A stretch of 64,000 nucleotides of DNA from a virus (taxonomy: Duplodnaviria > Caudoviricetes), in the IMG/VR virus record IMGVR_UViG_3300036987_000008, positions 2,551 through 66,550 of that record; one strand, given 5' to 3'. The notes under the pieces were generated by a model. That model was given only the letters and a program-made list of their open reading frames with translations, searched no databases and was not told the DNA's origin. Positions 7,508 to 50,088 of the stretch are shown one piece after another. Position 1 is the stretch's first letter. Each line of letters starts with the position of its first letter. The position numbers were made by a program, and so were the translations under genes.

Positions 7508-7699
7508 ATGCGACATAAACTAACCGATGCGCAGTGCGACCAGTTGGCAAGGATGCACGCGGTAACACCTAGCCCTACCGTCCGCGCATTGGTCCGCTCA
7601 GCGTTCGGTCTCGGCGTCAACATCGATGTTCTACAAGCAAAACACCCGGAGGTGAAAGATGGCGACAACAAAAGAGGGAGCAGTAAAAGCCAAGGTTAA
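7508..7699 (+). CDS. Small hypothetical protein
   Basis: 63 aa, directly after the previous stop. Confidence 0.45.
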   Translation: MRHKLTDAQCDQLARMHAVTPSPTVRALVRSAFGLGVNIDVLQAKHPEVKDGDNKRGSSKSQG

Positions 7700-7958
7700 A
7701 AAGATGTTGGATGCGTATGAGTGTTATCACTTCAGCCCTATGACTGGCGGATACGGTAACTCGGGGATTCCTGATATCATAGCGTGTTGCAACGGTAAGT
7801 TCCTAGCGATCGAGTGCAAAGCAGGTAAGGGTAAGACGACCGCGCTACAGGAGAAGAACTTAGCGGCGATACGAGAGGCGGGTGGTGCCGCGCTAGTCAT
7901 CAACGAGAGCAATATGTCTGAACTACAAGGGTACTTGATACTACTGGGGGCGTCATGA
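7659..7958 (+). CDS. VRR-NUC domain nuclease (putative Holliday junction resolvase)
   Basis: E..VK...GIPDIIAC...FLAIECKAG..T..Q PD-(D/E)XK pattern. Confidence 0.85.
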   Translation: MATTKEGAVKAKVKKMLDAYECYHFSPMTGGYGNSGIPDIIACCNGKFLAIECKAGKGKTTALQEKNLAAIREAGGAALVINESNMSELQGYLILLGAS

Positions 7959-8179
7959 AACCGCTGGTCATGTTGAGCACGCGATACCCCGATCAACAGG
8001 TATTGCGTAGTGTAGCTATGCAGTTTGGTGGGCAGCATGTGCAGTATCAAGTCCCGTACCATAGCAGGGCGATGGCGGAGGAAGGTATAGTTATTCGCTT
8101 GAAAGACGGGGTGGTGACGGTCAAGTGTGGTGACCTTGCGGCAGAAGCCGCTGACTATTTATTCGGAGAACAAACATGA
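7955..8179 (+). CDS. Hypothetical protein
   Basis: ATGA-coupled on both sides. Confidence 0.55.
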   Translation: MKPLVMLSTRYPDQQVLRSVAMQFGGQHVQYQVPYHSRAMAEEGIVIRLKDGVVTVKCGDLAAEAADYLFGEQT

Positions 8180-8628
8180 TTGAAAAACTACTGAAGCGAT
8201 TCATGTCGGACACGGGCAAGATGGTTCTCGAAGCGACATATAAATGGGCGGATATGAAAGACGGTGAGCCGGTCGACGACGCGTATGAACCTATGACGAT
8301 GTACGAGAATGCGTTAGCCTGTGGTACTTGGATAGATAAGCGCGTGCTGACAAGCGTGGTGATGCGCTTGCGCGTGGAGCATGCTATATCTTTGAAGCGT
8401 CGTAAAGCCGAGGCGACCGCGGCTAAGATCCTGATGGGTGAGACGTTCAACGAGAAGGGTCAGGCTAATCAGGCGAAACAGGTTAACCCCAACTCGTTAG
8501 GCGGTTTGGCTGCGCAACATCCGTATGCGAACCAACAAGCGTATCAACAAGCGCAGTACGCCAAACAGATGTACGCGCAGCAGGGGCTAGGTAATCTAGG
8601 TAACACACTAACTGGTACACAACGATGA
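8176..8628 (+). CDS. Hypothetical protein with Gln-rich tail
   Basis: 150 aa, ATGA-coupled to the polymerase. Confidence 0.6.
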   Translation: MIEKLLKRFMSDTGKMVLEATYKWADMKDGEPVDDAYEPMTMYENALACGTWIDKRVLTSVVMRLRVEHAISLKRRKAEATAAKILMGETFNEKGQANQAKQVNPNSLGGLAAQHPYANQQAYQQAQYAKQMYAQQGLGNLGNTLTGTQR

Positions 8629-10514
8629 GTCTTATAGCTATAGACATGGAGACCTTCTACTCGAAGGACTTCAGCCTTTCCAAAATGACCACGGAGTCGT
8701 ACATCCGTGACCCGCAGTTTGAAGTAGTCGGCGTGTCTATCATGATAGATGACAAGGCGCCGAAGTGGTTCAGTGGTTCGCGTAAGGAGATACGCGCGTG
8801 GCTTTTAAAACAAGCTGATTGGTCTGAGTCGTTCGTACTATCACACAACGCGCACTTCGACATGGCGATCCTCAACTGGCACTTCGGCATCCGTCCGAAG
8901 GTGTATCTGGACACGCTGTCTATGGCCAATGCGTTGCATGGTATCAACGAGTCGGTCTCACTGAAGTCGCTCGCAGAGAGATACAGCCTACCGTCCAAGG
9001 GTACTGAAGTGCATAACGCTATCGGTATGCGTCGTGCAGATTTCTCTGCGGAGCAACTCGCGGCCTACGGCGAATACTGCGATATGGATGCGTGGCTGTG
9101 CCGTACACTGTTTGACATCATGTCGCCTAAGTTCTCAAAGTCGGAACTGAAGGCGATAAGCACTACGATCCGTATGTTTGTAGAGCCGGTACTCGAACTT
9201 GATTTACCTCTTTTAGAAAAGCACCTCATCGATGTACGTGTGAAGCAACGCGAGAGTCTGGTTAAGATAGCTACGCTGATGGGCGTCGAGTCCGAAGAAG
9301 ATGTGAAGACGATACTCATGTCCAATGCGAAGTTCGCTACGCTACTGCGCAAGCTAGGTGTTGAGCCACCAGTGAAGGTGAGTCCAACAACGCAGAAACT
9401 GGCTTTCGCATTTGCTAAGACCGATGAGGAGTTTACCAATCTGTTAGAGCACGAGGATGAGATGGTGCAAGCGGCGGTCGCCGCGCGCTTAGGCAACAAG
9501 AGCACCATCGAGGAGAGCAGAACGGAAGCGTTCATAGCAGTAGCTAAGCGCGGCGCTATGCCTTTCCCCCTGAAGTATAGCGGCGCGGCGGTGACGCATA
9601 GATGGTCAGGCTTCGACGGTATCAACGTGCAGAACATGGGACGCGGTAGCGTGTTGCGTCAGGCTATCAAAGCGCCTAAGGGGTATAAGATCGTATCCGC
9701 AGACTTGAGCAACATCGAGCTACGCCTCGGGTTGTATCTAGCTTGCCAAGATGACAAGATCAAACTCATTGAGGATGGTGTCGACCTCTACGTCGATATC
9801 GCTGTGCCTGTGTTTAAGAAGTCGTACGGTGAGATAGTCGACCTCGGTAAGAAGAGTCGTGAGAGAACTACTGGTAAGGTGATTCAGTTGAGCTCGATCT
9901 ACGGCACTGGCCATAAGAAGTTGAAGGAGACGTTGCGCATCCAAGGCAAGGTTCGATTCAGTGAAGATGAGACACAGGCGATGACCGATCTATATCGCGG
10001 CGAGTACACGATGGTGACGCAAGCGTGGAACGAAGGTAAGGATGTACTTGATGCGCTGTATGCGAAATCAAACTACGGTGAGTACCTGCGACCGGGCATC
10101 TTGAACGTGACCGCCGAAGGCATCATGAAGCCCTCAGGCCTGATGCTGACTTATCCAGATTTAAGATGGACGAAGGATAAGAAAGATGGAAAAATGGGTT
10201 ATACTTATGAACAGAAACGGAAGGCGAGAGATCGTACCTACGGGTCGAAAGTTTTCCAGAGATGTGTTCAAAGTCTAGCTCGGGACATCATCTGCGAGCA
10301 TATGCTGAAGATCGACAAGCGGTTCATGGTTGTTGGCACGGTGCATGATGAGATCATCTGTCTTGTAGCCGACGACGAGGTTGAAGAAGCTAAAGCGTTT
10401 ATGTTGTCTGTTATGCGCACGCCTCCGAGCTGGTGTGACGGATCTGACGGGGGTCTAGCTTTGCCGCTCGATGCGGAATGCGAGGCGAGTGATAATTATT
10501 CTGGAGCCCACTGA
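8625..10514 (+). CDS. polA: DNA polymerase family A with 3'-5' exonuclease
   Basis: Exo I DMET, Exo II HNAHFD, Exo III YCDMD; motif A DLSNIE, motif B RTTGKVIQLSSIYG, motif C VHDE. Confidence 0.95.
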   Translation: MSLIAIDMETFYSKDFSLSKMTTESYIRDPQFEVVGVSIMIDDKAPKWFSGSRKEIRAWLLKQADWSESFVLSHNAHFDMAILNWHFGIRPKVYLDTLSMANALHGINESVSLKSLAERYSLPSKGTEVHNAIGMRRADFSAEQLAAYGEYCDMDAWLCRTLFDIMSPKFSKSELKAISTTIRMFVEPVLELDLPLLEKHLIDVRVKQRESLVKIATLMGVESEEDVKTILMSNAKFATLLRKLGVEPPVKVSPTTQKLAFAFAKTDEEFTNLLEHEDEMVQAAVAARLGNKSTIEESRTEAFIAVAKRGAMPFPLKYSGAAVTHRWSGFDGINVQNMGRGSVLRQAIKAPKGYKIVSADLSNIELRLGLYLACQDDKIKLIEDGVDLYVDIAVPVFKKSYGEIVDLGKKSRERTTGKVIQLSSIYGTGHKKLKETLRIQGKVRFSEDETQAMTDLYRGEYTMVTQAWNEGKDVLDALYAKSNYGEYLRPGILNVTAEGIMKPSGLMLTYPDLRWTKDKKDGKMGYTYEQKRKARDRTYGSKVFQRCVQSLARDIICEHMLKIDKRFMVVGTVHDEIICLVADDEVEEAKAFMLSVMRTPPSWCDGSDGGLALPLDAECEASDNYSGAH

Positions 10515-10699
10515 TGCGGAGATACAAGCGAGGAATCCGAGAACTTACGATGGACGCGTATCGCTTGGCGATGCGCCGGTGGTTGCACAGAACACCACGA
10601 TGCGCGCATTGGGATCTACCTAAGCCTAGATTGAAGGGTCAAGTGATGCACGACTACAAACACCCGCATAGCAAGGTGTTGTGGGTGGAGGTCGTATGA
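10514..10699 (+). CDS. Small hypothetical protein
   Basis: 61 aa between polA and the TraR-like gene, overlapping both. Confidence 0.5.
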   Translation: MRRYKRGIRELTMDAYRLAMRRWLHRTPRCAHWDLPKPRLKGQVMHDYKHPHSKVLWVEVV

Positions 10700-10887
10700 G
10701 TGACGAGATCGATATTGCGCAGACTCGCGAGATGGAAGATACAGCTAGGGCACTAGAGGCCGCGAGGGAGACAGCAAGACGTATCCCTGTCGGGGCTCCT
10801 GGTGACTGCGATTTTTGTGGTGAGTGGTCGGGGCGGCTCGTCGATGGAGCATGCGCGCCCTGCAGAGATAGGAGGAAATTGAAATGA
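10696..10887 (+). CDS. TraR/DksA C4-type zinc finger protein
   Basis: MSDEIDIAQ (DxxDxA motif) plus CDFCG...CAPC; GGAGG SD before ATG 10696. Confidence 0.75.
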   Translation: MSDEIDIAQTREMEDTARALEAARETARRIPVGAPGDCDFCGEWSGRLVDGACAPCRDRRKLK

Positions 10888-11213
10888 GTGATGTGATAAC
10901 AGGCATGACCGGCAAACAATACGCACCACTGGACTTGAGCGCGCCGCAGTCGGTGCTCGAAGAGGCCACCGCATTGATACATGGTGACCGTGAGCAGACC
11001 TACGGTCACCCATCGAAGAACCTAACGAACATCGCACAGCAGTGGCGTCTGTATATGTTGCAGAAGTACGGCACTGACGTAGACCTGTCCGCAGAAGATG
11101 TTTGCTGGATGATGGCTGACTTGAAGAAAGCCCGTCAGATGAACGTGTACAAGCGTGACAACCTGGTCGATGCTATCGGTTATGTTGGTCTGGTCGAGCG
11201 GGTGCAGGGATGA
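10884..11213 (+). CDS. DUF6378-like protein
   Basis: LEEA..LIHGDREQTYG.P..N...IA..W...LKKAR...DNLVDAIGY. Confidence 0.75.
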   Translation: MSDVITGMTGKQYAPLDLSAPQSVLEEATALIHGDREQTYGHPSKNLTNIAQQWRLYMLQKYGTDVDLSAEDVCWMMADLKKARQMNVYKRDNLVDAIGYVGLVERVQG

Positions 11214-11869
11214 CCCTCTCTTACTCCGGTCTGAAGTCTTACGAGAACTGCCCGCGCCAGTTTCATGAAGTCCGTGTACTGAAGAAGCACCCGCCGCAGG
11301 ATACGGTGCAGACGATCTGGGGCAAGGAGGTTCACAGCGCGGCGGAGCTATACGTGCGTGATGGCACACCGTTCCCGATGCAGTTCCCTGGGTCGGATAT
11401 GGTGGAGGCCATCGCGAACATCCCCGGCGACAAATACTGTGAGCTTGAGATGGGGGTGAATGATAAACTTGAGGCTGTGACTTTCGACGACCCAACTGCT
11501 ATACTGCGCGGTATCGCCGACGTGGTCATCATCAACGGTGAGAAGGCTCGAGTCCTAGATTACAAGACTGGAAGTGCGAAGTACCCTGATGTCGCACAGC
11601 TTGAACTGATGGCGTTGATGGTGTTCGCCAAGTTCCCTGAGGTACAAGTGTCGAGGGGCGCACTGCTGTTCCTAGCGCACAACGTCATGGTGCAGAAGAT
11701 AACCAAGCGTGAGGATGCTGAGCGGCACTGGAGCACTTGGCTAGGTAAGCTACAGAGAGTGGAGACGGCTCATGAAACGAATGTGTGGAACGCAAAAAGC
11801 AGCGGGCTCTGTCCTTGGTGCCCAGTCACTACCTGCGAGCACTGGAAGCCCAAGCCGCCAGGTCGGTAA
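11210..11869 (+). CDS. Cas4/AddB-like PD-(D/E)XK exonuclease
   Basis: SYS.L..YENCP; GIAD...VLDYKTG; C-terminal CPWCPVTTC cysteine cluster. Confidence 0.88.
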   Translation: MTLSYSGLKSYENCPRQFHEVRVLKKHPPQDTVQTIWGKEVHSAAELYVRDGTPFPMQFPGSDMVEAIANIPGDKYCELEMGVNDKLEAVTFDDPTAILRGIADVVIINGEKARVLDYKTGSAKYPDVAQLELMALMVFAKFPEVQVSRGALLFLAHNVMVQKITKREDAERHWSTWLGKLQRVETAHETNVWNAKSSGLCPWCPVTTCEHWKPKPPGR

Positions 11870-11924
11870 GTCTGTTGCACTATGTGCAGTCTTCGGCATG
11901 GCGCCGGTTAAATGCGAAGGACGC

Positions 11925-12158
11925 GTGATGTACTACGATTACTACGATGAAGCAACGCTAGATTATCAGCATCCGAAACATGTAGTAGCTAAACACCTCG
12001 TTGGTAAGAAATACAAGGGGGTCAACCGGAAGTGGCGCGTGCAGTATGCAGAGGATGTCCGTAAAGCAGCACGCAACTATTTTGGGCAGGAACTTATGCG
12101 CGGTGCTAATATAGACGGACTTAGAGCTGACCCATACTGGAAGTACATGGAGGACTGA
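11925..12158 (+). CDS. Hypothetical protein
   Basis: The in-frame 3' part of track ORF 11772..12158 looks coding; the start is uncertain. Confidence 0.4.
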   Translation: MMYYDYYDEATLDYQHPKHVVAKHLVGKKYKGVNRKWRVQYAEDVRKAARNYFGQELMRGANIDGLRADPYWKYMED

Positions 12159-12160
12159 AC

Positions 12161-12451
12161 ATGCCGCGCCGTAAAGACATACCCAAAGGTGACCCCTATT
12201 TCCACGACCAGTGGTTGCAACAGAAGGCTCGTGGGGAAGATAAAAAGCAACTAGAGCGTCAGAAGGCACGACGCGCGTACGACAAGGCGGGTATTGATCG
12301 TAAAGGCAAGGACATCGACCACGTCAAGGCGTTGGCTGAGGGTGGTAAGAGTACGACTGGTAACCTGCGCTTGCGTAGCAAGACAGCGAATCGATCAGAC
12401 AACGGGCACAACCCCGGTGAGAAGGCTGGTAAGAAACGTAGCAAACTATAA
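12161..12451 (+). CDS. Small HNH endonuclease
   Basis: DIDHVKALAEGG...GNLRLRSKTANRSDN; GGAGG SD. Confidence 0.8.
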   Translation: MPRRKDIPKGDPYFHDQWLQQKARGEDKKQLERQKARRAYDKAGIDRKGKDIDHVKALAEGGKSTTGNLRLRSKTANRSDNGHNPGEKAGKKRSKL

Positions 12452-12557
12452 CCCGAAAGGGTTATAGGCCTGACCGTTGAATCTGCGCCGCTGTGGGCGC
12501 TACAAACAAGTACGCTGTATGATGAACGGGTACAGCGGTCAGACCTATAACAGGAGG
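12446..12557 (+). promoter_or_regulatory. Structured RNA leader upstream of the helicase with alternative pairings
   Basis: Hairpin CTATAACCC-GAAA-GGGTTATAG (12446-12467). Long-range stem GTTATAGG-C-CTGAC / GTCAG-A-CCTATAAC (12461-12474 / 12538-12551) abuts SD AGGAGG. Confidence 0.55.
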
Positions 12558-12561
12558 TAAG

Positions 12562-14133
12562 ATGGAAATTGTCGAAGGACGTGCCCTTCGGGTGCGAGTT
12601 CGTTCGCCCGATAGGTTTACAGCAGTGATTCCAAAGAGTCACTATGAAGGCGAAGTCGCACCCGGCGTTCACGAGATGCTGTTCCACTGGGGCTACGACG
12701 AGAGCCTAGTACTAAAGAACATGGGGGTTAAGGGTGTACCCTCTCCCATAAACAAAGCATACAACTGGCCCGGATTATTCAAGCCGATGGATCACCAACG
12801 CGACACGGCGTCGTTCTTGTCCATGCACAAGCGCGCGTTCTGTTTCGATGAGCAGGGTCTAGGCAAGACAGCGGCAGCGGCGTGGGCGGCGGACTACCTC
12901 ATGACTATCGGACAGGTGAAGCGCGTCCTGGTCATCTGTCCAGTATCCATCATGCAAGCCGCGTGGCAACAAGACCTGTTCAAGGTGCTGATGCACCGCA
13001 CGGTGGGTATCGCGCATGGCACTAAGCAGAAGCGCGTGGACGTCATCAACAGCGACTGTGAGTTCTGCATCATCAACTATGACGGCGTGCTTATCGTCGA
13101 GGACGAGTTGCTAGCGGGTGGTTTCGATCTCATCATCATGGACGAAGCTACCTATGTGAAGAACGCGCAAGCGAAGCGTAGCAAGAGCATCAAGCGGCTA
13201 TGCGGCCCCGACACTCGGGTGTGGCTAATGACTGGTACACCTGCGGCACAGTCGCCTGAGGATGCGTATGGCCTGGCCAAGCTAGTCTCGCCTGACCGCG
13301 TGCCTAAGTTCTTCGGGTCGTGGCGCGACATGGTGATGCAACAGCTAACGGCGTTCAAGTGGATACCTCGAGCCAAGGCTAAGGACATTGTGCATAACGC
13401 GTTGCAACCTGCGATACGGCACACCAAAGAAGAGTGCTTGGACTTGCCGGACATGATGTACATCGATCGCATGATCCCATTAACAGCGCAACAGGAGAAG
13501 TACTACAAGACGTTGAAGACTCAGATGTTGGCACTAGCGGCCGGTGAGGAGATAACCGCGGTAAACGCCGCCGCTATGCTGAATAAGCTACTGCAGTTGT
13601 CAACCGGCGCGGTATATGCTGATGGAGAGCACCAAGGGAAGAAGACGGTCGTAGAGTTCGACGTCAAGCCGCGCTTGGATGCGTTAGCAGACATCATCGA
13701 TGAGAGCTCACACAAGGTCATTGTGTTCGCTCCGTTCACGCACACCATCGAGATGCTAGAGAAGGACTTGACTAAGCGAGGCTACACACACGCTACGATC
13801 AACGGGTCGGTATCACAAGGTAAGCGCGGCGAGATATTCTCCGCCTTCCAATATCAGCCTGACCCGAAGGTCATCATCATCCAACCTCAGGCGGCGGCAC
13901 ACGGTGTGACCCTGACTGCGGCTAACACGGTGGTGTGGTTTGGGCCGACGACGAGCATGGAGACGTACCTGCAAGCTAACGCCCGTGCGCATCGCAATGG
14001 CCAGAAGAATAAGGTGACGGTGTATCACATGCAGGGTAGCCCTGCAGAAGCACAGCTATATAAGGCACTGCAGGTTCGTGGGGCCGCCCAAGTGTCACTC
14101 ATGGATCTGTATAAAGAAGTAATGGAGTTGTAA
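12562..14133 (+). CDS. SNF2-family (DEAD/H) helicase
   Basis: FDEQGLGKT, IMDEAT, MTGTP, Q...AAHGVTLT...RAHRNGQ. Confidence 0.93.
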   Translation: MEIVEGRALRVRVRSPDRFTAVIPKSHYEGEVAPGVHEMLFHWGYDESLVLKNMGVKGVPSPINKAYNWPGLFKPMDHQRDTASFLSMHKRAFCFDEQGLGKTAAAAWAADYLMTIGQVKRVLVICPVSIMQAAWQQDLFKVLMHRTVGIAHGTKQKRVDVINSDCEFCIINYDGVLIVEDELLAGGFDLIIMDEATYVKNAQAKRSKSIKRLCGPDTRVWLMTGTPAAQSPEDAYGLAKLVSPDRVPKFFGSWRDMVMQQLTAFKWIPRAKAKDIVHNALQPAIRHTKEECLDLPDMMYIDRMIPLTAQQEKYYKTLKTQMLALAAGEEITAVNAAAMLNKLLQLSTGAVYADGEHQGKKTVVEFDVKPRLDALADIIDESSHKVIVFAPFTHTIEMLEKDLTKRGYTHATINGSVSQGKRGEIFSAFQYQPDPKVIIIQPQAAAHGVTLTAANTVVWFGPTTSMETYLQANARAHRNGQKNKVTVYHMQGSPAEAQLYKALQVRGAAQVSLMDLYKEVMEL

Positions 14134-23904: not shown

Positions 23905-24189
23905 CTATTTAGCTACTGCTGTTATCGTTACCGGGCGCTGGAACCCGTCTATCTCTTGATACCCTATGGTGAACTCCCAGCCGGATACTTTAGCTGGCAT
24001 CTGCACTTTGACTTGCGGCGCGGCAACCTGCACTTGCGGAGGCGTCATCATAATACCTTTGACGGCGTCTATCAATGCGCGGTTGCTCTCGTCGGTACGG
24101 CGACCCGCTTCAGCTATGGCCTGCGCCACACCCGCGTTTGGGTCGACTGGTTCGATCGCACTGTCAAATTTAACCCTGCCTTTGATCAT
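23905..24189 (-). CDS. Hypothetical protein
   Basis: ATG 24189 overlaps the stop of the 1294-aa gene; PQVQV repeats. Confidence 0.6.
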   Translation of the reverse strand: MIKGRVKFDSAIEPVDPNAGVAQAIAEAGRRTDESNRALIDAVKGIMMTPPQVQVAAPQVKVQMPAKVSGWEFTIGYQEIDGFQRPVTITAVAK

Positions 24190-27100
24190 CCTAAGCACCT
24201 CTTCAGAGCTTCTAGCATGTTGACGCGCTGTTCCGCTTCACGCATGACTTCCTTCGCTCTATATTCCTTGGTGGTCACCTTACCATCAGGCCCTTCATGC
24301 TCAAGTGTAACACGAGCCTTGGCTGGAATCTCATCGGAGTAGCGTGGGGTCTTAGCCGCCTTCTCGGTGCCGATCTCCTTCAGCTTCTTGCCTTCCAGCG
24401 CCATGCGCGCCGCGCCGTAGGCTACGTCTACCAGCTCTTGCGGAGTGATGTCCTTAGTCAGACCGAGCTTAGTGAGGAACTTGCGCACGCCATCCTTGAA
24501 CTGTTTGAGCCACTTACCTGCGGCGGTGAAGTCTTTGGGGGTGACACCCTCGCGCACTAGACCCTCGACCATGTAGGCGACAGCCTCGCGCTGTCTGTTG
24601 GCTGACTTAGACTTGAGGGAGCTCTTAACCGCCTCGTTAGCCACGCGAGATTCTAAAGACCCGTCATTGCGCCCTGCCCACTCAGCCACCTTCTCCTGCA
24701 GCTGCGTCATGACCTTCTCACCTAGTATCTTCTCCATACCCTCATGGACGCCCACCTCATGCAGGACCTTACCCAGCACGTCACCGCGCTCAATGTTCTC
24801 AGCGACCAGAACTACCTTACCTTCTGCTGTGCGGAACCCCGCAACGCGCTTGTCGGTCATGCTCGGGTGGTCGGCCTTAGCTTCGGCCTGGGTTTCGTAT
24901 ACCTTAACAAAGCTATCCATCGCTTTGGTATTGGTAAAGTCCTTCTCGATCTCCGCACGTACGCCCTCAGCTGTATGTGGGTTCTTAGGCTTAGCGGCGC
25001 TCGCATACATGAACGCATCGGGATCTGGCATATCCAGGTCGCGCAGGCTCACTACACCGGCTTCGTCGATATCGGTTGCCTCGAGCTCCGCAGGTTTTTC
25101 TTTCTTGCTGACCATGTGGCGTTCAGCGTCGCGGTCGGCCTGTTCTTCTTTGGCTTGACGCTCCACCTCTTTGCGCTCGAACTCAGCGATGGCTTTCTTA
25201 GCATCACGCAACTCTTTCTGACGAGACTTCTCGCCCGCCATTGCGGATGCTTGCTCTTCACGGACTTGAGCCATGCGCTCGAATATCGCTTTGCGTTTGT
25301 ACTTCTTCAGCAGCTCGATGTTCTTCTTGTCCTCGGCGACCGCGCGCTCCAGCTGCTCAGTCGTGATGGTCTTATTCTTCCGCCCTTGAGCGATAGCCTT
25401 GCGGGCTACGAGCTTCTCTTCCTTGGTTCCGGTCTTGATGTCCGAGGCCATCTGAGCCAGGTCGTTCCACCACAGGGCTTGCATGCCGTGGTTCGGCGTG
25501 CCGTCTTTACCCATATGCTCAGGGGAGTCGAGCTTGAAGTGCGCCGGAGCGAACTCTTCGACGGCTGTCGCTTTACCTGCACGGCCGATACCTGTGGTCG
25601 TAGCCTCAGGCAGGTACTGTTCAGCGTCTCGCGCCTCTGCGGCGGCCTTGGTGTCGGCTTTTTGTTTGTCGGTGGCTACGAGCTGATCAGCCAACGTGGT
25701 CTTCTTCGCAGCCTCGGCACGCGCAGGTGCTTCGCGCTTCACTTTGGTGGCTACGCTGGTGGTCTTTTCTTTCTTAGCACGTTGCGCTACCTGCGCTGGT
25801 TTCTCGCGGTTCGCTACATACTGCTCCATGTACTTCGTGGCGATATTGTTAGCTACCGCCTCTGGTTTACCTTCGAGTTGCTTGTGCAGGAACGCTCTCG
25901 CTTCTGCAGGGATGTCCACGTTGAAGTTCATCTCCATCGTGTCCATGATCTCCTCTGCTTGAGTGCGGTCACGCCCGCCAGCTAAGTCAGCCTTTAACTG
26001 AGCCACACCGCGTGCTTCACGACGCGCCGCTAGGTCATCTCTTACTGGAGCGTTGACAGGCTTTTTTCCCACAACAGGTCGTTCATCAGCCGGTACACCT
26101 GGTCGAGCTCCTCCGGCGTCAGCTTTAGTTCCGCTAGCTTCGACAGGGGCTTCTCTTGGTACAGATACAGCATCGCTAACTCGATCTTTTCCTTGCGGCG
26201 CGGCAGGTTCTGCTTTTGCATTTCTGGCTCCTGGGGTTGGTCGTCCGTTTTTGTCGAACAGAGCGCGAGTGCTTTGCTGGTTGAGGTGTTCATCGTAGGG
26301 CCCTAAGTCTTCTTTGGCGCGAGCGACAATCTCTGTGAGCGCCGCATCGTCACCAGTCTTTTGGTAGTGTTCGTAAGCCTTTTGGAATTCTTCATACGCT
26401 TCAGCCTTTCGATCAGCCAGTTCGCGGGGGGATGCCACGACTTCTGGCTCCGGCTTGCTCATGTCATCACGGGTCAGGGCATGATTAAACATGTCCTCTT
26501 GGCGTGTCTGCGTGCGCGCATTCAGTGCGGCGGTCTCAACCTGAGCTTGGTTAATCTGCTCAGCAGCCTTCTGATTACCGTAGTCGATACGTTCCTGATT
26601 GTTAGCCTGAGCCTCACGTACCTTAGCCGCGCGAGCGCGACCTGCCTTCATATTCTCTACGTACTGCTCGTCGATCCAGTTGCGTTGGTCTGGCTCTCTC
26701 TGCTCCGCAGCTTTGATAGCGGGTTCGATCGTGCCAGCTACTCTAGCGTACGCCGCCGCTTCCGGCACTTTTGAATTGGCCAGAGGCTCCAATTCAGCAT
26801 ACAGCGCGCTCAATGACTCAACGTCGTTCAGCGGCACACCTTCATAGCGCTTACGCAGTTCACGGCCTTTGCCCTTATCCGGGACACCATGCTGGTCGAA
26901 GAACTCAGGCGTGATGACATCGGTAGCACCTGGTGTGATGTTGCCTTGGAATCCACCCTTTGGTTGCTCTGGGGTTCCTAAGTCAAGCCCCATCTGAGTC
27001 GCTTGACCGTCTTTCCACGCGTTCTCTTTACGTGCATCAGCGAGCATAGCCGTGTTCGCAGCATCAGCTTGGTCGATCGCCTTCACATGACTACGACGCA

Positions 27101-28070
27101 CCCCGTGGAACCCAAGGGCTCCGAACACAGGAGCTCCGACGATAGCGGCTTTAGCTGCCTCACCGTAGCGATCCATAGCAGGTTCACCGGTCCAATCCTC
27201 ACCAGACTGCGCAGTGCGCATGGCTTCAGTACCAACCATCAGCGGTACACCGATAGCGCCCATCTCTGCGGTCTTGACCAGATAATTCCTACCGTGGCTG
27301 TTCAACTGGGCGATAGCCGCTTCTTTTGTTAGCTGACCGGTCTGCACCATCTTGGCAGTCGTAGCCAACTCAGGCCCCATAGCCTTTAAGAATGGAGTAG
27401 CCAGCTTACCGCCAGCCGCACCGAGTAACGGCATCAGGGAGGCTTGAGCCAGAGACCACGCTGTGGTTTCCAACGCGTCATACTGTTGTGGGGCTAACCC
27501 TTGCTCGACGCGTTGCGCCTGTACTTCCTCGAATCGTTGTTTATTCTCACCCTGCTCCATCGGGGTGTCCGCGGCCATGAACCCAGCACCGCCGAGAGCT
27601 AAAGCACCAAGAGAGCCAGCCGCCACAGGGGCACCGGCCAGAGCTGCCGCGGGTACCGCCGCCGCGCCGACGGCCATAGGGACACCGTAGCGTCCGAACA
27701 TACCGCCGATCGGCTCTGTTACGTGTTGATCGATGAATGAGCTAACGCCTGGGACGATACCCTCTTTGAACGCCGCGTCAGTGTCCTCGCCTGTGGTTGG
27801 TGTGTACGCACCAGGAGTCTGGTCGGGGGCCATCATGGCTTTACCAGCGTCGTCTAGACGGGTGCTACCAGTCCAATCGCCGACACCGCGCAACCCTGCG
27901 CCCATACCTTGGTTGAACCCAGCCTTCATGGCGGGCATGAAGCCGCGCTGCTTCTCTATACCGTACGACCCTGGAAATTGCTGTTGCGCCCAAGCGTCTG
28001 CATCCGCCCAAGACATATTGTCTGGGACCATAACCGCGTTGCCGTCAGGTAAAACGTGTCTCTTAGCCAT
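24186..28070 (-). CDS. Large internal virion (ejection) protein with zincin-like HExxxH metallopeptidase domain
   Basis: 1294 aa; Gly/Ala hydrophobic N-terminal segments; VLVAENI...VLHEVGVHEGME. Confidence 0.75.
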   Translation of the reverse strand: MAKRHVLPDGNAVMVPDNMSWADADAWAQQQFPGSYGIEKQRGFMPAMKAGFNQGMGAGLRGVGDWTGSTRLDDAGKAMMAPDQTPGAYTPTTGEDTDAAFKEGIVPGVSSFIDQHVTEPIGGMFGRYGVPMAVGAAAVPAAALAGAPVAAGSLGALALGGAGFMAADTPMEQGENKQRFEEVQAQRVEQGLAPQQYDALETTAWSLAQASLMPLLGAAGGKLATPFLKAMGPELATTAKMVQTGQLTKEAAIAQLNSHGRNYLVKTAEMGAIGVPLMVGTEAMRTAQSGEDWTGEPAMDRYGEAAKAAIVGAPVFGALGFHGVRRSHVKAIDQADAANTAMLADARKENAWKDGQATQMGLDLGTPEQPKGGFQGNITPGATDVITPEFFDQHGVPDKGKGRELRKRYEGVPLNDVESLSALYAELEPLANSKVPEAAAYARVAGTIEPAIKAAEQREPDQRNWIDEQYVENMKAGRARAAKVREAQANNQERIDYGNQKAAEQINQAQVETAALNARTQTRQEDMFNHALTRDDMSKPEPEVVASPRELADRKAEAYEEFQKAYEHYQKTGDDAALTEIVARAKEDLGPYDEHLNQQSTRALFDKNGRPTPGARNAKAEPAAPQGKDRVSDAVSVPREAPVEASGTKADAGGARPGVPADERPVVGKKPVNAPVRDDLAARREARGVAQLKADLAGGRDRTQAEEIMDTMEMNFNVDIPAEARAFLHKQLEGKPEAVANNIATKYMEQYVANREKPAQVAQRAKKEKTTSVATKVKREAPARAEAAKKTTLADQLVATDKQKADTKAAAEARDAEQYLPEATTTGIGRAGKATAVEEFAPAHFKLDSPEHMGKDGTPNHGMQALWWNDLAQMASDIKTGTKEEKLVARKAIAQGRKNKTITTEQLERAVAEDKKNIELLKKYKRKAIFERMAQVREEQASAMAGEKSRQKELRDAKKAIAEFERKEVERQAKEEQADRDAERHMVSKKEKPAELEATDIDEAGVVSLRDLDMPDPDAFMYASAAKPKNPHTAEGVRAEIEKDFTNTKAMDSFVKVYETQAEAKADHPSMTDKRVAGFRTAEGKVVLVAENIERGDVLGKVLHEVGVHEGMEKILGEKVMTQLQEKVAEWAGRNDGSLESRVANEAVKSSLKSKSANRQREAVAYMVEGLVREGVTPKDFTAAGKWLKQFKDGVRKFLTKLGLTKDITPQELVDVAYGAARMALEGKKLKEIGTEKAAKTPRYSDEIPAKARVTLEHEGPDGKVTTKEYRAKEVMREAEQRVNMLEALKRCLG
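26042..26221 (-). CDS. Nested out-of-frame 59-aa ORF inside the 1294-aa gene
   Basis: AGGAG six nt before ATG 26221; helical product MQKQNLPRRKEKIELAMLYLYQEKPLSKLAELKLTPEELDQVYRLMNDLLWEKSLSTLQ. Confidence 0.55.
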   Translation of the reverse strand: MQKQNLPRRKEKIELAMLYLYQEKPLSKLAELKLTPEELDQVYRLMNDLLWEKSLSTLQ

Positions 28071-29490: not shown

Positions 29491-30528
29491 TCAGCCTCTC
29501 GATTTCTTCATAGCGCGCGCCGCGCCGATACCTGCGATACCCGCGCTCTTCATCAGGCCGCCCTTTTTAGCTTGTGTTTGAGGTATACCCTGCCCCGCCG
29601 CGGCATCTTGCTGCCCTGCGTTGTATGTGCTGCCACCCAAGGAGACCAACTGGTCAACCGCGTTAGGTGCCGCCGCCTGACTTGTCTCGGAGTCCATGAA
29701 GCTCGTCGCTGTGGGGTTATTCTTGATGATGTCCTGCATCCAAGACGCTTGGTTCTTATCCCAGTCTCGCGCTTCCACGAAATTCTTCTGTTGCTGGTCG
29801 AGCTCCGTCTGTGTCTGGGCTTGCTGTGCATTGCCGACGGCATTCTGTGCGCCGTACAAGGACAAGTCTGTCGCCTGCTGGTTAGTACCGAGGCTCGCCA
29901 ACTGGTTAGCCGCGCTGAGCTGATTCTGGTTTTGGACGTTGTATTGACCCATGCCAGTGTTGTAGGCCTGATTGGCACCTTGCATCTGGGTGTCGTTCTG
30001 CAGCTGTGCGAGATTACGCTGACGCTCAGCATCCATGATGCCGTGGCGAGATCCGCCGAAGGCCCCTGCGGTTGCGAAATGGGTCTGGTCTGCCAAGCCT
30101 TGTATGGTTGACTGCCGTGCCGCCTCACGATTCGCGATGTCTGTGACGTTCTGTTGGTACGGGTTCATGAAGCTCGCTGCGACGCCTGGGTCGTTCCAGC
30201 TGCTCTGCATGGTGTTCTGGGTCTGGTTGATGGCGGGTGCGAACTGCTGCACTGGGCCCATACCGGTGACCCCGGCTTGCGCGTTCTGTTGAACCTGGTT
30301 GAATCCGGCTATCTGTGTACCGCCATATGGTGTGTACCCGCGCCCAGCGATCTCCTGTGAGTTGGCTAGGTTCTTGTCTTGGTATGGCTGTAGATACGAC
30401 GGGAGGCTCGAATCACGAGTCGTCATCTTCTGTTCTGGGGCGGAACTACCACCGCCTTCGAGGGTCATGCGGCCACCAACGCGTTGGAATGCAGCGTCAG
30501 GTAACATCGTATCTAGGTCGTATCTCAT
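29491..30528 (-). CDS. Internal virion/ejection protein (P22 gp7-like position)
   Basis: ATG 30528 overlaps the GNAT stop; N-terminal ...RMTLEGGGSS; FMNPYQQNV motif; Gln/Asn-rich. Confidence 0.75.
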   Translation of the reverse strand: MRYDLDTMLPDAAFQRVGGRMTLEGGGSSAPEQKMTTRDSSLPSYLQPYQDKNLANSQEIAGRGYTPYGGTQIAGFNQVQQNAQAGVTGMGPVQQFAPAINQTQNTMQSSWNDPGVAASFMNPYQQNVTDIANREAARQSTIQGLADQTHFATAGAFGGSRHGIMDAERQRNLAQLQNDTQMQGANQAYNTGMGQYNVQNQNQLSAANQLASLGTNQQATDLSLYGAQNAVGNAQQAQTQTELDQQQKNFVEARDWDKNQASWMQDIIKNNPTATSFMDSETSQAAAPNAVDQLVSLGGSTYNAGQQDAAAGQGIPQTQAKKGGLMKSAGIAGIGAARAMKKSRG

Positions 30529-30971
30529 TTCAACTCCTTGCGGTAGAGGCGTTCGGCCTCTGTGTACCCTAATCTTATCAGCAATGGGCTGAAGTCTTTC
30601 ACCAATCTCACGCCTATCGAGGTCCATTGAACCCCACGGCGGCGGAGCATATCTTCTGCGTACTGGATCATCTGCATACCTGTACGACCTGCGCGGTGAC
30701 TTGGAGCCATATACACCGTGTCTACATACCCTGCCAAAACTGCGTAGTGCAAGTGCGGCTTGATGATTGTTAGGTGGTACCCCACCAGTTTCCCGTCATC
30801 CCGCGCAGCTACCACCTGCAAACTTCCATTCTTATCCATCCACTCGAACTGCAAGTCATCGGCCTTGACCGGGATAGTCCCGCGATACACCTCAGCCTCA
30901 TGCTCCAACATCAATTCAGATGCTTCTTCGCGCACCTGCCCGTAGGTCTCGACCCCGAAGCGGACTGTCAT
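30525..30971 (-). CDS. GNAT family acetyltransferase
   Basis: VAARDDGKLVGY...VDTVYMAPSHRAGRTG.QMIQYAE...LGY. Confidence 0.8.
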   Translation of the reverse strand: MTVRFGVETYGQVREEASELMLEHEAEVYRGTIPVKADDLQFEWMDKNGSLQVVAARDDGKLVGYHLTIIKPHLHYAVLAGYVDTVYMAPSHRAGRTGMQMIQYAEDMLRRRGVQWTSIGVRLVKDFSPLLIRLGYTEAERLYRKELK

Positions 30972-33824: not shown

Positions 33825-34352
33825 TTAGACGACTGTTACTCGGCTACCTGCCGTCACTGTGAGGACTGCCCCAGCATCGATAGTCAGAGGTCCCGCAACC
33901 ACGGCATTCTTGTCTGTTGGTATAGTGTAGCTTGTGGTCATGTGGGTGTCACCAAGCATGAACACCTCGTCCCCGCCCGCTCCAGTAGCCCCTCCACCAC
34001 CGATACTAGTCCACGCAGTGCCGTCATACCCCTCCCACTGGTTCAGGGTGGAGTTGAGGCGTGTATACCCTGCCGCCGGAGTGCCATCACGTTGAGCGGT
34101 GGTGCCGACCGGGAGGACAGCTGAGCCAGTGATGGATGTGCGGGGGACTTTTGCCGCGTCCAAGGCGCCTACATCGGCATCCAAGGCAGCAACGTCGGCG
34201 CTTAGCGCCGTAATAGCGGCATCCACTGTGTATATCTGATCTCCATCGGCGGCGACCTGGGTCAAATATAATGTCAGGGCGCGGGCCAACTTGTCGATGT
34301 AAACCGCATCGTACTCTTTGGGCGCTGCCGGTAATGCTGGTGGTTTCTGCAT
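33825..34352 (-). CDS. Tail protein
   Basis: MQKPPALPAAPKEYD start coupled by TAATG; PVGTTAQR...RLNSTLNQWEGYDGTAW. Confidence 0.7.
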   Translation of the reverse strand: MQKPPALPAAPKEYDAVYIDKLARALTLYLTQVAADGDQIYTVDAAITALSADVAALDADVGALDAAKVPRTSITGSAVLPVGTTAQRDGTPAAGYTRLNSTLNQWEGYDGTAWTSIGGGGATGAGGDEVFMLGDTHMTTSYTIPTDKNAVVAGPLTIDAGAVLTVTAGSRVTVV

Positions 34353-36235
34353 TACTTCTGTCCATCCTGACGCACTGCGATACGGGGAGAGCCCAACTGC
34401 CAAGCAACACCTGCATCAGTAGACTCAATACGGAACGTAACCTGGCGGCCGCGCACGCGGACCCAGCTCATCTCAGTGAACGGAGTCACGTTGGCGATAG
34501 AGGTCTGAACCGTCCTAGAGTTAGAATCCGCCGCTCTGAACGAGCTTCCTGGGGTATCCCGCGCTGCGAGAGTGACAGTCACCGCCGGAACGGCCGCGGT
34601 AGACCCCTCGAAGTCGACGTCGTGGATGACCTGGTCTACAAACGAGAACGTCTGGCCATCTCCGATATCGAAGTCGGAAGACTCGAGGTACGCGTGGATG
34701 CCGCTAGGGATCGTCGTAGATGTGTCATCAACACCTGACTCGTGGTAATACAAACGATTATCTAATCCTGCAGCTACGGGGTAATCTCGCAGTGGGGTGT
34801 CTAACCACGCGCTGCGGTCTAGTGTACCGAACGTCCAGATGCGCTCTACGTAGTTGTAGGTCACATATCGATCTGGATACGTCGCAGTGGATGACACGTA
34901 GTGCCAAGTGACCTCGTTGAACCCTGAGTTCGTACCGGCGAACACCTGACCCATCTGAGCCCGGTTCATGTCGCCGAACACATACTTACGCACGTCACAA
35001 GGTAGAGTCTGCACCGTACCGTTGTACACGTAGAACTTATCCTTACCCATCCAGTACGCCGCATTATCAGCGATACCTACAGCATTGACAGACGCGATCG
35101 ATATGTTGGTAGCCAACGGGGTGAAGCTGAACACCACAGGTAAGCCTACGTACTGCATAGACGTGAGGGCAGTGTCCGTCCAGATCAGATTCTCCTGACG
35201 CATCTTAGCGACAGCGTAGATGTAGCTACCCGAGGTCAACCGCTGCTCACCGGATGTGGTAGTGGCGGACGGTACCCAGTTGATTATGTTCCCCTGGTCA
35301 CACCAACGGACAAGCAGCGGATCTTCCCCGCCACCGAGGTAGCTATTCGTACCAAAGAGGACTACGTGCTGATCCTCAGTCACGATCAGGTTGTCAGCAA
35401 CGGTGGGTACGCTTGCGGCGCCAACCTCCGCGGATAGCAGAGTTCCCCGAGTAGCTAGTGCGGTGGTTATCGATACACCGCCGGTCTGCGCTTTCCAGTA
35501 ATACAGGCCGCCGTCACGCACGGCAAACACGAGGTTCTCACCGTAGTTGTCCCCAACCCACTGACGCATACCTGAGGTAACTACCCCCGCGCCTGTAGCG
35601 GCCTCACCGTAGCCACCTGTGCCATAAGCACCGACACCATACCCAGTACCTACAACCGATACGGCAGGGCCAACGGATACCTGGAAATCTATAGTAGCGG
35701 TACCGCCACCAGGTCCAGCGGAGCTGGTAGCCGCCGTAGGTGCTGTGAAAGTGAACGTAGTCGTACTGGGTACCGAGGTGATCTGAAACTCGGCTTTGAG
35801 ACTCGCCGCAGTGATCCCACCGATGTCCGTCATACCTGCACCGGAGAACGTAACGAAGTCCCCCAGTATCGCCCCGTGGACCGCCGTAGTTGTGACTGTA
35901 ACGGTCGTAGACAGGTTCGTGGTCGTGAATGGGTTTGCCTGAGCCACGGTGTACCGTATCGGGGTTATGTCAGATAGTAAACCACCGCGCTCGAGATACA
36001 CCTTCAAGTTCGTACCGACAGCCAGTAGGTTCTCACTGCCTAACGTCACCCAGTTGTGCATAAACCGCGCAACACCTTGGAACACCCCGGTACTCAGGCG
36101 AGTCCACCCACCGATCTTCTCGGGGGTGCCAGAACGGAACCTCACCTTGTCCATGAGCCACCACGAACCCTCATTCGTATAGCGTGTGTTCTCGCGGTTG
36201 ACGCCTGGTTTAAAAATGAGTTTCTGTAGTGGCAT
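34352..36235 (-). CDS. Tail hub/nozzle protein (P22 gp10 or tail tubular B-like)
   Basis: 627 aa; KLIFKPG...W...DKVRFR.G.PEKIGGW; VRWCDQ; RVRGRQ; position in the virion arm. Confidence 0.7.
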   Translation of the reverse strand: MPLQKLIFKPGVNRENTRYTNEGSWWLMDKVRFRSGTPEKIGGWTRLSTGVFQGVARFMHNWVTLGSENLLAVGTNLKVYLERGGLLSDITPIRYTVAQANPFTTTNLSTTVTVTTTAVHGAILGDFVTFSGAGMTDIGGITAASLKAEFQITSVPSTTTFTFTAPTAATSSAGPGGGTATIDFQVSVGPAVSVVGTGYGVGAYGTGGYGEAATGAGVVTSGMRQWVGDNYGENLVFAVRDGGLYYWKAQTGGVSITTALATRGTLLSAEVGAASVPTVADNLIVTEDQHVVLFGTNSYLGGGEDPLLVRWCDQGNIINWVPSATTTSGEQRLTSGSYIYAVAKMRQENLIWTDTALTSMQYVGLPVVFSFTPLATNISIASVNAVGIADNAAYWMGKDKFYVYNGTVQTLPCDVRKYVFGDMNRAQMGQVFAGTNSGFNEVTWHYVSSTATYPDRYVTYNYVERIWTFGTLDRSAWLDTPLRDYPVAAGLDNRLYYHESGVDDTSTTIPSGIHAYLESSDFDIGDGQTFSFVDQVIHDVDFEGSTAAVPAVTVTLAARDTPGSSFRAADSNSRTVQTSIANVTPFTEMSWVRVRGRQVTFRIESTDAGVAWQLGSPRIAVRQDGQK

Positions 36236-36261: not shown

Positions 36262-36732
36262 CTACTTGGTTTTGAGGCTCTGCAGGTACTTAGCGTTCAC
36301 TCGGCAGCTCTCGACTATTTTGTCGCACTGCCCGAGTAGCTCTCCAACGCTGCTGCTGTATCGCGTAAGAGGATCTGGTGAGATAGAGTAAAGTGACCCG
36401 CCTCCGGCAGCTGGCTGTACGCCGACGCCGGTATCTGCAGGTTTTGTACATGGGGTCTTTGGCACGCGCAGCCAGAGAGCATGGTTGTTAGCAAGCAAGC
36501 CATCAATACGGTTAAGGTTCGCATCTTTTATCGTCTCCAGTTCCAGTATCTTCAGCGCATCGGCTGCCGCCTTCTTCTGAAAGTCTTCCTGCATCTTTTG
36601 CTTTTCTGAGTCCCACTGACTTTGTACATGGGACGAGCCAGTGTTGTATCCAAAAGCAGCCGCTATAAGCAACAGGGCAGTAGACACAAGCAACTTCCAG
36701 TTCTCGAGTAGCCATACGAACGCTCCCATCAT
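36262..36732 (-). CDS. Rz: i-spanin (Rz-like)
   Basis: Single N-terminal TM followed by a coiled coil; last gene of the lysis cassette. Confidence 0.7.
   Translation of the reverse strand: MMGAFVWLLENWKLLVSTALLLIAAAFGYNTGSSHVQSQWDSEKQKMQEDFQKKAAADALKILELETIKDANLNRIDGLLANNHALWLRVPKTPCTKPADTGVGVQPAAGGGSLYSISPDPLTRYSSSVGELLGQCDKIVESCRVNAKYLQSLKTK
36315..36524 (-). CDS. Rz1: o-spanin (Rz1-like lipoprotein) embedded out of frame in Rz
   Basis: MRTLTVLMACLLTTMLSGC with lipobox LSGC; fully nested. Confidence 0.7.
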   Translation of the reverse strand: MRTLTVLMACLLTTMLSGCACQRPHVQNLQIPASAYSQLPEAGHFTLSHQILLRDTAAALESYSGSATK

Positions 36733-38675: not shown

Positions 38676-39629
38676 TCACAATTTCATAACGTAAGCCAAC
38701 GCATAGTACGGAGGCCTATTCTCATGCGCATCGCCAGAACCCGCGTTCACGTTGGTGATTGTGATCCCAGTAGTGTTCGTTGACGTGTTAGCACCGGTCC
38801 AGAAGGCACCTTGCGATCCAGCCGACCCGCCAGACCCTTGAGTACTTGGTTGGATCGTGTGGAAGTGTCCGGGGTCTGTCAGTGTGTTGGCGTGGCTATG
38901 GACCGGCATCTCTGCGGTTGTCAGCGTGTGTGTTGCTTCACCGCCTGTAGCAGCCACAGCGTATGTCGAGCCTGCGCCGACGATGAACCGATCCCGCAAG
39001 TCAGGCGTGCCGCTAGTACCATCGCATAGGGCCCAACCAGCGGGGATAGCCGCAATAGCGCCCGACCACAGCGATATGAGACCTGCCGGGAAGAATGCAG
39101 AGAGCCGTGTGTTGTTCACAGCCTCGCCAGCGACAGACGACGTCGGTACCGCGGTAGTACCTGTGACCGACAGCGGGCCAGCGAGTGTGGCCCCCGGAGC
39201 AGTCAGCGCGTTGGTAGAGGCGCCCGCAGGATCAACAACGTCCGTACCAGTACATAACAAGAATAGGTATTTACCTGCTGGGATGGCGACCCCTGCCCCT
39301 GCTGCAGTCTTAAAGGTGATAGCGAGCCCACCGCTCGTGCCGTTGTAGACCCAGTACCCTTTGGACGCGTTCGGGCAGATGACGCTACACGCTCCACTCG
39401 GGGTACCCGTCAGAGCGATCGCCGCGTAGGTCGCCTCGTTGGTCAAGGCCCCGTCGACGTTCGTCAGGGTATATGTCGCCACACCAGCCAAGCTTACAGA
39501 TACACGACCGGCGATAGCATGTTCCAATATCGTACCGATGTTGTTGTTGTTGGTCGTACTCCAAGTACCGGCCTGGTCGCCCAGCGCAGGTAGCTCCGTT
39601 TTCAGAATCGGTGAGTATGCTGAGGTCAT
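38676..39629 (-). CDS. Tail fibre protein with collar-like domain
   Basis: GDQAGTW.TT.N.N N-terminus; PAG.ISLWSG....PAGWALCDGTSGTPDLRDRFIVGAG. Confidence 0.8.
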   Translation of the reverse strand: MTSAYSPILKTELPALGDQAGTWSTTNNNNIGTILEHAIAGRVSVSLAGVATYTLTNVDGALTNEATYAAIALTGTPSGACSVICPNASKGYWVYNGTSGGLAITFKTAAGAGVAIPAGKYLFLLCTGTDVVDPAGASTNALTAPGATLAGPLSVTGTTAVPTSSVAGEAVNNTRLSAFFPAGLISLWSGAIAAIPAGWALCDGTSGTPDLRDRFIVGAGSTYAVAATGGEATHTLTTAEMPVHSHANTLTDPGHFHTIQPSTQGSGGSAGSQGAFWTGANTSTNTTGITITNVNAGSGDAHENRPPYYALAYVMKL

Positions 39630-44740: not shown

Positions 44741-45799
44741 CTAGAAGCCTTTCGACCGCAACCACTCGTCCACATCAGGGAGAACCCCCAGGTCCGCGGC
44801 GTTCAGCTTCTCGTTGCGCTGGGTTTGGTCTAGCTCACGCCCCCACGCGGGTGGGGTGTACCAGTGCTTCGAGAATATAGTTAGCATGTCTGCCGGGTGT
44901 ATATGCGCGACGTTACTGAGGGTGGCGCGCTTCGCCTCCTGACCAACCGTAATCTCCCGCCCTTTTACCTCTACGTACAGATCCCGCTCGGGGATATAGA
45001 AGTCTGGCATATAGCCACCGAGATGCGTCTTTATGTATAACTGGGTCTTAGTGTTTGGGTACCTCGTTGTCAGCCACCGATACACCAGCACCTCCCAAGA
45101 GGATCCTGCTTTTACTACCCCCTCGGGGGTGTTCACAGTCCACTTAGCCCCCGCCAGCGAGCGCATTCCCGCAGTCCCCCTCGCAGTGGCGCCCGCCGCG
45201 TTGCGCTCGTGCCCGCACTTAGGGCACCCGTGCCCTTGTGTCAGGTTCGCGTATGTCATCTCAAACCGATGCTGGTGCTTGCGACAGGTTACCCAACCCT
45301 TCTTCTGCGTGCCGGTGAATACAAACTCCGAGAAGTCATAGTCTCCGAGGGCCGCAGCCTCTAGGGTAGCTATCGCTTTCTCCTGAGAGTTTAGTCGCCC
45401 TGCGCTTCGCCGCGCGATTCCGCACTTTGGGCACGCTTGCCCCTGTGAGTGCTTGAGCATATTAGTCTGAAAGCTGCCGTGATCAGGGCAGACAAGCGTG
45501 AACTTCTCTCGGTTGTTTTTTACCTCGACCAGGTGGTCGTAGTTGTATCTTCCACCGTGTAATGCGGTAGCTTCCGCTTTGAACACCGCCATAGGTTTCC
45601 GTCGCTTCTCGTTACCGCATGCTCGACACACATGCCCCTGCAGTAGTTCGCTAGCCTCTGGGTACACATCCCCGTGCTTGGGGCATATCACATGCACCTT
45701 CTTCCTAGAGTGCAGGTACACCACCTGGCTCAGGTCATAAGTGGGGCCCACCTTGGCTCGCACCGCTTTCACGAAATCTTCAGGCATCTGGTCTTTCAT
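44741..45799 (-). mobile_element. Putative homing endonuclease: three Zn-ribbon (DUF723-like) repeats + PD-(D/E)XK nuclease
   Basis: Y.Y/F..V...K.V...C..H...G..C..C x3; C-terminal YMPDFYIPERDLYVEVKG. Confidence 0.75.
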
Positions 45800-49896: not shown

Positions 49897-50088
49897 TCAA
49901 TCGTCTTGGTCGAACCGCTGGACTTGTGCGTCCAGTACAGCCAGGGCTTGCTGAAGCCCTTGCCGCTTACCGACGAGCATCCAGTACTCGTCCTTGTCCT
50001 TCACACCGGACAGGATGCCGCGCTCGACACCCTGCAGGTCTTGTTGCAACTCGTCACGAACGACACGCGCTAGGGCGACTACGCTCAT
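49897..50088 (-). CDS. Small conserved head-module protein
   Basis: 63 aa; L..G...EY..LVG..QGL. Confidence 0.7.
   Translation of the reverse strand: MSVVALARVVRDELQQDLQGVERGILSGVKDKDEYWMLVGKRQGLQQALAVLDAQVQRFDQDD

Follow-up and report, generated by a model that had tools for sequence, protein, structure and literature searches.

Can a stretch of DNA deep within a giant phage gene encode, in another frame of the same strand, a second protein that is started by its own signal and held by selection? The question arises from a locus in an uncultured virus, which we studied in a window of 64 kb (the whole stretch of DNA analysed) out of a 66.55-kb record with direct terminal repeats. A preliminary description of this DNA had proposed a hidden small gene with its own Shine-Dalgarno sequence and ATG inside the giant gene of a virion protein, overlying a low-complexity linker and selected in the second frame, and had named as checks a homologue search with the 59-aa peptide and tests for stop-codon avoidance and synonymous-site patterns in homologous loci. 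The AGGAG-CCAGAA-ATG start at 26221 and the 59-codon minus-strand ORF that it opens lie exactly at the coordinates given there, and the ORF is wholly contained in a longer ORF on the same strand at an offset of +1, which is the architecture of the Rz1 type. The elements of the locus are as follows:

24186..28070, minus strand: giant gene, 1294 codons, putative ejection-type internal virion protein
26042..26221, minus strand: embedded gene, 59 codons plus TAA in the +1 frame of the giant gene, predicted three-helix protein
26228..26232, minus strand: Shine-Dalgarno AGGAG, with the spacer CCAGAA at 26227-26222 (6 nt) and the ATG at 26221-26219
26044-26042, minus strand: TAA stop codon of the embedded gene
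26043..26222, minus strand: host-frame reading of the overlap, aa 617-676, a disordered linker rich in Pro, Ala, Gly and Glu
26222..26293, minus strand: open upstream extension in the same +1 frame, from an ATG at 26293, giving an 83-codon version

We consider it very probable that 26042-26221 is read in two frames, with the small protein under selection and the linker only kept open. The 180 bases would be read from the same, presumably late, mRNA: ribosomes on the giant ORF would pass through a disordered linker between conserved N- and C-terminal parts, and others would initiate at the internal AGGAG-6nt-ATG, in the frame one base over, yielding a free three-helix protein of 59 residues. 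Selection acts on the amino-acid sequence of the small protein and the linker needs only to stay open, the small gene's codons, which almost never end in T, leaving the host frame free of stops. Translation of the embedded gene and its late timing are presumed, 'late' being read only from the position in the structural arm of the genome. The nearest cultured phage is Pelagibacter phage HTVC027P, with whose large terminase that of the window shares 45% identity, and the recognizable genes upstream of the giant gene include:

52686-54254, minus strand: terminase, structural arm
50085-52676, minus strand: portal, structural arm
45908-46816, minus strand: major head protein, structural arm
38676-39629, minus strand: tail fibre, structural arm
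36262-36732: Rz-like spanin
34352-36235, minus strand: phrog_3287 virion protein, structural arm
29491-30627, minus strand: phrog_4287 DNA ejection protein, structural arm, with the giant gene two genes downstream

The gene of a 468-aa protein separates the phrog_4287 ejection gene from the giant gene. The place of the latter in the structural arm suggests that its product (P0001) is an ejection-type internal virion protein; read by eye, the N-terminal sequence has Gly/Ala-rich hydrophobic segments, and searches gave only a spurious CHIPS match in Pfam at E<=1 and no PHROG family. The term 'polyvalent', used for this protein in the preliminary description, is not supported for it, as it is without a Pfam domain at E<=1, and PF18857 (LPD38) is recorded only for the longer relatives P0005, P0010 and P0012. 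The database copy of the giant protein (P0003) has 1276 aa and starts at Met19 (window 28016-28070, minus strand); ATG 28070 is the better start because the first 18 codons are conserved in the relative L002 described below. Putative endonuclease genes were also seen in the window: on the plus strand, 62435-63688 encodes a 417-aa protein that matches phrog_1314 'HNH endonuclease' over its whole length (E=2e-72), and on the minus strand an HNH/other endonuclease gene (44741-45799; phrog_681, phrog_559) lies in the head-gene block, adjoining the major head protein gene.

An open alternative frame is by itself unremarkable in the giant gene, which has 11 other same-strand alternative ORFs of at least 40 codons. 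A 413-codon antisense ORF within it (24744-25985, plus strand) is probably a by-product of composition. AGGAG-type start motifs occur 43 times in the 64-kb window, against 10.9 expected by chance. What sets the embedded ORF apart is conservation, codon usage and start-site evidence, which together go far beyond chance and bear out the proposal of a hidden small gene with its own Shine-Dalgarno sequence and ATG. Outside the overlap zone, the host frame scores 0.35-0.84 on a codon-usage measure trained on the other genes of the window; at aa 581-660 its score falls to ~0 and that of the +1 frame rises to 0.35-0.43, and over the exact ORF the embedded frame scores 0.47 and the host frame 0.07. 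Among the 43 long ORFs of the window, only here does codon usage flip to an open +1 frame. The weaker GC3 bias that had been noticed over the ORF is likewise real, since host-frame GC3 is 0.25-0.28 there and ~0.6 elsewhere, with 0.81 in the +1 frame. The low complexity of the linker was also correctly seen: 78% of aa 617-676 are P, A, G, E, V, S or D, and aromatic residues, Ile, Leu and Met are altogether missing.

This composition can be traced to the embedded frame, whose third position is the first base of the host codon. T stands at only 1/59, 3/56, 3/62 and 0/59 of the embedded third positions, compared with 20% in the window's genes (the window's frequency being the reference for the other contigs as well), which shows avoidance of stops in the host frame. 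With T avoided at embedded third positions, host codons cannot begin a stop; they mostly start instead with G or C, hence the richness of the linker in Ala, Gly, Glu, Pro and Val. The host frame is open in all five sequences compared (5/5). With random synonymous codons the chance of this would be 0.10-0.19 per lineage, and we therefore conclude that read-through was selected too.

The comparison set consists of five metagenomic sequences from three deep lineages. Giant-protein homologues (P0004-P0012) include a single full-length relative, P0004 on Logan contig L002, which is 66% identical and in whose gene the same +1 frame is open and ends at the same stop as the embedded ORF of the window; the others align over the N- and C-terminal parts only. 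A scan of metagenome contigs with the embedded peptide added L007, a near-twin of L002, and no further member. The DNA of the distant homologues, searched in six frames with an embedded-peptide profile, gave these matches:

L003: giant gene 10001-13381, embedded ORF 11820-12005, +1 frame, E=6e-15
L004: giant gene 7600-10791, embedded ORF 9680-9856, +1 frame, E=6e-9

Both ORFs end at the same C-terminal residues as that of the window. The homologue search thus places a homologous +1-frame ORF in the giant genes of four other contigs (L002, L007, L003 and L004). A two-sequence profile found 0 matches in 1.84 billion predicted proteins, which confirms the suspicion that standard annotation misses the gene, as homologues are present in the DNA of these four contigs. 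A scan of viral contigs and genome contigs for further members found none, and neither a free-standing homologue outside giant genes nor a split form of the giant gene turned up in the searches run. DNA and protein searches of phage records with the giant gene gave zero matches, and the only proteins or shorter fragments found to share the central region of the giant protein were itself and P0004. The giant gene exists in two forms, one of ~1050-1300 aa with the embedded gene and one of 1843-1987 aa, to which the LPD38-bearing P0005 belongs, without it; the long-form relatives (L005, L006, L008-L011 and their records) showed no copy of the embedded gene, whether embedded or free.

The start signal is conserved across this set and is not universal in it. 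In L003 the sequence is AAGGAG, 5 nt, ATG, and in L004 it is GAGGG, 6 nt, ATG, both aligning with the window's ATG 26221, so that a well-spaced Shine-Dalgarno sequence and ATG are found in 3/5 sequences (window, L003, L004) and all three deep lineages are covered. In L002 the ATG is displaced two codons downstream and preceded by a weak, poorly spaced Shine-Dalgarno sequence, and L007 has lost the start region through an in-frame deletion of 27 nt, which leaves only a far-upstream ATG. The start is therefore not universal, and the embedded gene may be weakening in the L002/L007 sub-lineage. Loss of the Shine-Dalgarno sequence or ATG in homologues, which the preliminary description had said would count against the gene, thus affects this one sub-lineage, and L003 and L004 keep both. 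Over about 3 kb, only 9 bases distinguish the giant gene of L002 from that of L007, and 5-6 of the 9 differences, together with the 27-nt deletion, fall within ~140 nt of the 5' part of the embedded gene (L002:4009-4146 vs L007:1044-1274); this cluster may reflect a local hot spot, a patch of recombination or a remodelling of the start region.

Does translation of the small protein begin at this start at all? In the window clade no stop interrupts the +1 frame over the 24 codons that precede ATG 26221, and we considered the 83-codon version beginning at ATG 26293 as the conserved unit. We rejected it because the +1 frame of L004 has a stop 3 codons ahead of the conserved ATG; upstream of 26221, the substitutions that separate the window from L002 are silent in the host frame and alter the embedded one, and AF2 predicts residues 1-3 and 9-26 of the 83-residue version at pLDDT <50. 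The extension 26222..26293 is thus probably outside the conserved protein. A lipoprotein, suggested by a lipobox-like LALC in the 83-codon version, was also discarded, as LALC is not conserved in L002.

The same open extension is what a programmed +1 frameshift upstream would need, which would give a truncated protein of ~680 aa with the three-helix domain at its C terminus and no free 59-aa protein. Elements resembling a Shine-Dalgarno sequence can promote +1 shifting, prfB being an example, and L007 has no internal ATG and an intact conserved part, as such a mechanism would allow; we nevertheless regard a frameshift as improbable, and prefer independent initiation because no conserved slippery site was found. 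The upstream stretch varies freely at host-synonymous positions, its sole A-run is broken in L007, L004 has a +1-frame stop just ahead of the ATG, and three lineages possess well-spaced start signals. A comparably small chance attaches to the view that the gene was captured or is a relic and has ceased to be expressed, in which case past selection or a residual constraint is what we see and only the linker matters today. The degraded signal of L002 and the deletion in L007 are what such decay would look like, but the embedded arrangement is already present in all three deep lineages with purifying selection between them, so selection acted while the gene was embedded. Even the L002/L007 pair, whose start has suffered most, differs in the conserved part by only three changes, two of them synonymous in the embedded frame and one Ala-to-Val.

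Evidence for selection on the small gene comes from the pattern of substitutions. In a codon alignment of the giant genes of the window and L002, host third positions differ in 12/58 codons of the overlap and in 671/1195 elsewhere (Fisher p=1e-7), and identical residues are encoded by identical codons in 33/36 cases in the overlap as against 380/796 elsewhere (p=6e-8). Along the entire giant gene, third-position changes are scarcest in windows that begin at aa 619-624, precisely where the ORF lies. Over the conserved 165 nt there are 30 differences, distributed 12/6/12 over embedded codon positions 1/2/3, embedded position 2 being the host third position; of the embedded codons that differ, 10 are synonymous and 11 non-synonymous. 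When 30 changes were placed at random with the host frame kept open (11,847 simulations), embedded identity was 34.7±2.1, compared with the 44/55 observed, a value that 0/11,847 simulations reached, and the host-frame identity to L002 of 34/54 equals the null value of 35.1 for randomly placed changes. A second null, in which codons were resampled so as to preserve both host proteins and match the synonymous divergence of the whole gene, predicts an embedded identity of 16.9±3.1, and 43/54 was observed.

Counts in the style of OLGenie give dNN/dNS 0.48 and dNN/dSN 1.48 for the window and L002, that is, purifying selection on the embedded frame and none on the host frame here. The same holds for all informative pairs, namely all pairs of the five sequences except the near-identical L002/L007: embedded identity exceeds host identity (e.g., 0.44 vs 0.26 and 0.36 vs 0.12), embedded position 2 is the least variable, and dNN/dNS is 0.44-0.93 and dNN/dSN 1.25-2.94. 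As a control, the 11 other alternative ORFs of the giant gene have identities of 0.22-0.51, and 9/11 have stops in L002. The synonymous-site test in homologous loci therefore came out as the early proposal of selection on the second frame would have it, with host synonymous sites frozen over the ORF, changes that follow the embedded frame and a purifying signal across the relatives.

Frozen synonymous sites alone do not reveal what kind of element freezes them, and an element acting at the nucleotide level (an RNA structure, or a regulatory or packaging signal) could also do so, the +1 frame being incidental. We think this very unlikely, because the changes show the periodicity of +1-frame codons and include two-base swaps that keep the residue (Arg CGC/AGG, Leu TTA/CTG), codon usage in the +1 frame is gene-like and no promoter-like site is present. 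It is also the protein that persists: at 57-65% nucleotide identity to the distant lineages, the window's embedded peptide alone still matches L003 and L004 (E=4e-11 and 1e-9), whereas the host-frame translation of the same DNA matches L002 and L007 only, neither L003 nor L004, whose linkers have no detectable similarity to that of the window. A chance open frame in GC-rich DNA, for which the long alternative ORFs common in the giant gene might be invoked, or a local patch of recent recombination, can be dismissed, since ORF and stop are kept in three deep lineages, the simulations exclude chance, and recombination would lower all codon positions alike, whereas host positions 1/2/3 change 12/15/12.

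What the protein looks like is predicted with some confidence. AF2 modelling from the five sequences yields a confident three-helix bundle (pLDDT 82.9; helices 5-21, 26-31 and 36-58), and the model of the 83-residue version, from two sequences only, reaches pLDDT 84-94 over the conserved part. Fifteen positions (15) are the same in every member; an E-x-A-M-x-Y-L-Y stretch and a C-terminal S-x-S belong to them. Searches with the small protein in Pfam, PHROGs, NCBIfam and PADLOC gave nothing above noise, and the PDB gave no match by sequence or profile, with Pfam, NCBIfam and PDB profiles silent even at E<=1 to 10. Structural comparison by Foldseek (PDB and viral structures) and VIA (best Z 6.1) returned generic three-helix bundles, with few HTH proteins among many, and the best value in the ESM Atlas (0.79) was noise. 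The functions put forward in the preliminary description (a chaperone or inhibitor of the giant protein, or a regulator) are thus not established, as matches of family and fold point to none of them. A sigma-70 region 4 or HTH identity finds no support in any profile, and the acidic pI speaks against it. The pI is 5.2-5.6 in four of the five members and 8.0 in the window, and because four of five are acidic a DNA-binding regulator looks unlikely. An o-spanin of the Rz1 family was likewise set aside: the 59-aa protein is without Cys or a hydrophobic N-terminus, and its gene lies in an ejection module. Because the small protein has travelled with the giant gene through ~50% protein divergence, one could guess that it works by protein binding, as a partner either of the giant ejection protein or of virion assembly, a suggestion that we would sooner doubt than defend. 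The small proteins form a new family that annotation has missed, and the setting, inside a host gene of this kind, is new as well.

Overprinted genes are familiar from small viruses, such as phiX174, where B lies within A and E within D. As there, one DNA stretch would here yield two proteins, in a 66.5-kb dsDNA phage with no obvious genome-size pressure, unlike those small viruses. The closest likeness in layout is to the spanins, in which the reading frame of lambda Rz1 lies within Rz at an offset of +1 (PMC6139136): as in lambda Rz/Rz1 and T7 18.5/18.7, a small gene with its own start lies wholly inside a larger one on the same strand, in the +1 frame (PMC6139136). A single late transcript supplies both products of a spanin pair, and the inner gene is frequently overlooked by gene callers (PMC6139136). 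Rz1 is a lipoprotein rich in proline, whereas the inner protein here is a predicted three-helix fold without a signal peptide or conserved lipobox; nor is the present pair a lysis gene, its host being a putative ejection-type virion protein, and, unlike in Rz/Rz1, the outer reading is disordered and the constraint falls on the inner gene. In overprinted pairs one reading is typically ordered and the other rich in disorder-promoting residues (rule cited in PMC6139136).

Which of the two readings is the older? Native codon usage and a folded product go with the small gene, and foreign codon usage and a disordered product with the linker of the giant gene. Out-of-frame derived readings tend to be disordered, by a rule cited in the same work (PMC6139136), and by this rule and its codon usage the linker looks derived, as if a long ORF had come to run across an existing small gene. 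In this respect the locus would differ from the usual case of a small new gene in an old one, since it is the reading of the long gene that looks derived. One may tentatively go further and imagine, although the odds are rather against it, that the small gene is the older and that the linker arose by out-of-frame read-through, e.g., through fusion of the flanking genes, the nested protein becoming an obligate partner.

For annotation, the embedded gene represents a real protein family that has escaped every gene caller, and its absence from 1.84 billion representative predicted proteins marks out-of-frame genes in the linkers of giant genes as an annotation blind spot. For dual coding, it provides a clean natural example of two frames sharing DNA, in which the small gene keeps its protein and its synonymous sites are spent on a stop-free other frame, dictating the composition of the linker. 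If the small protein is a true partner of the ejection protein, it would be an added component of the poorly understood podovirus-like ejection machinery.
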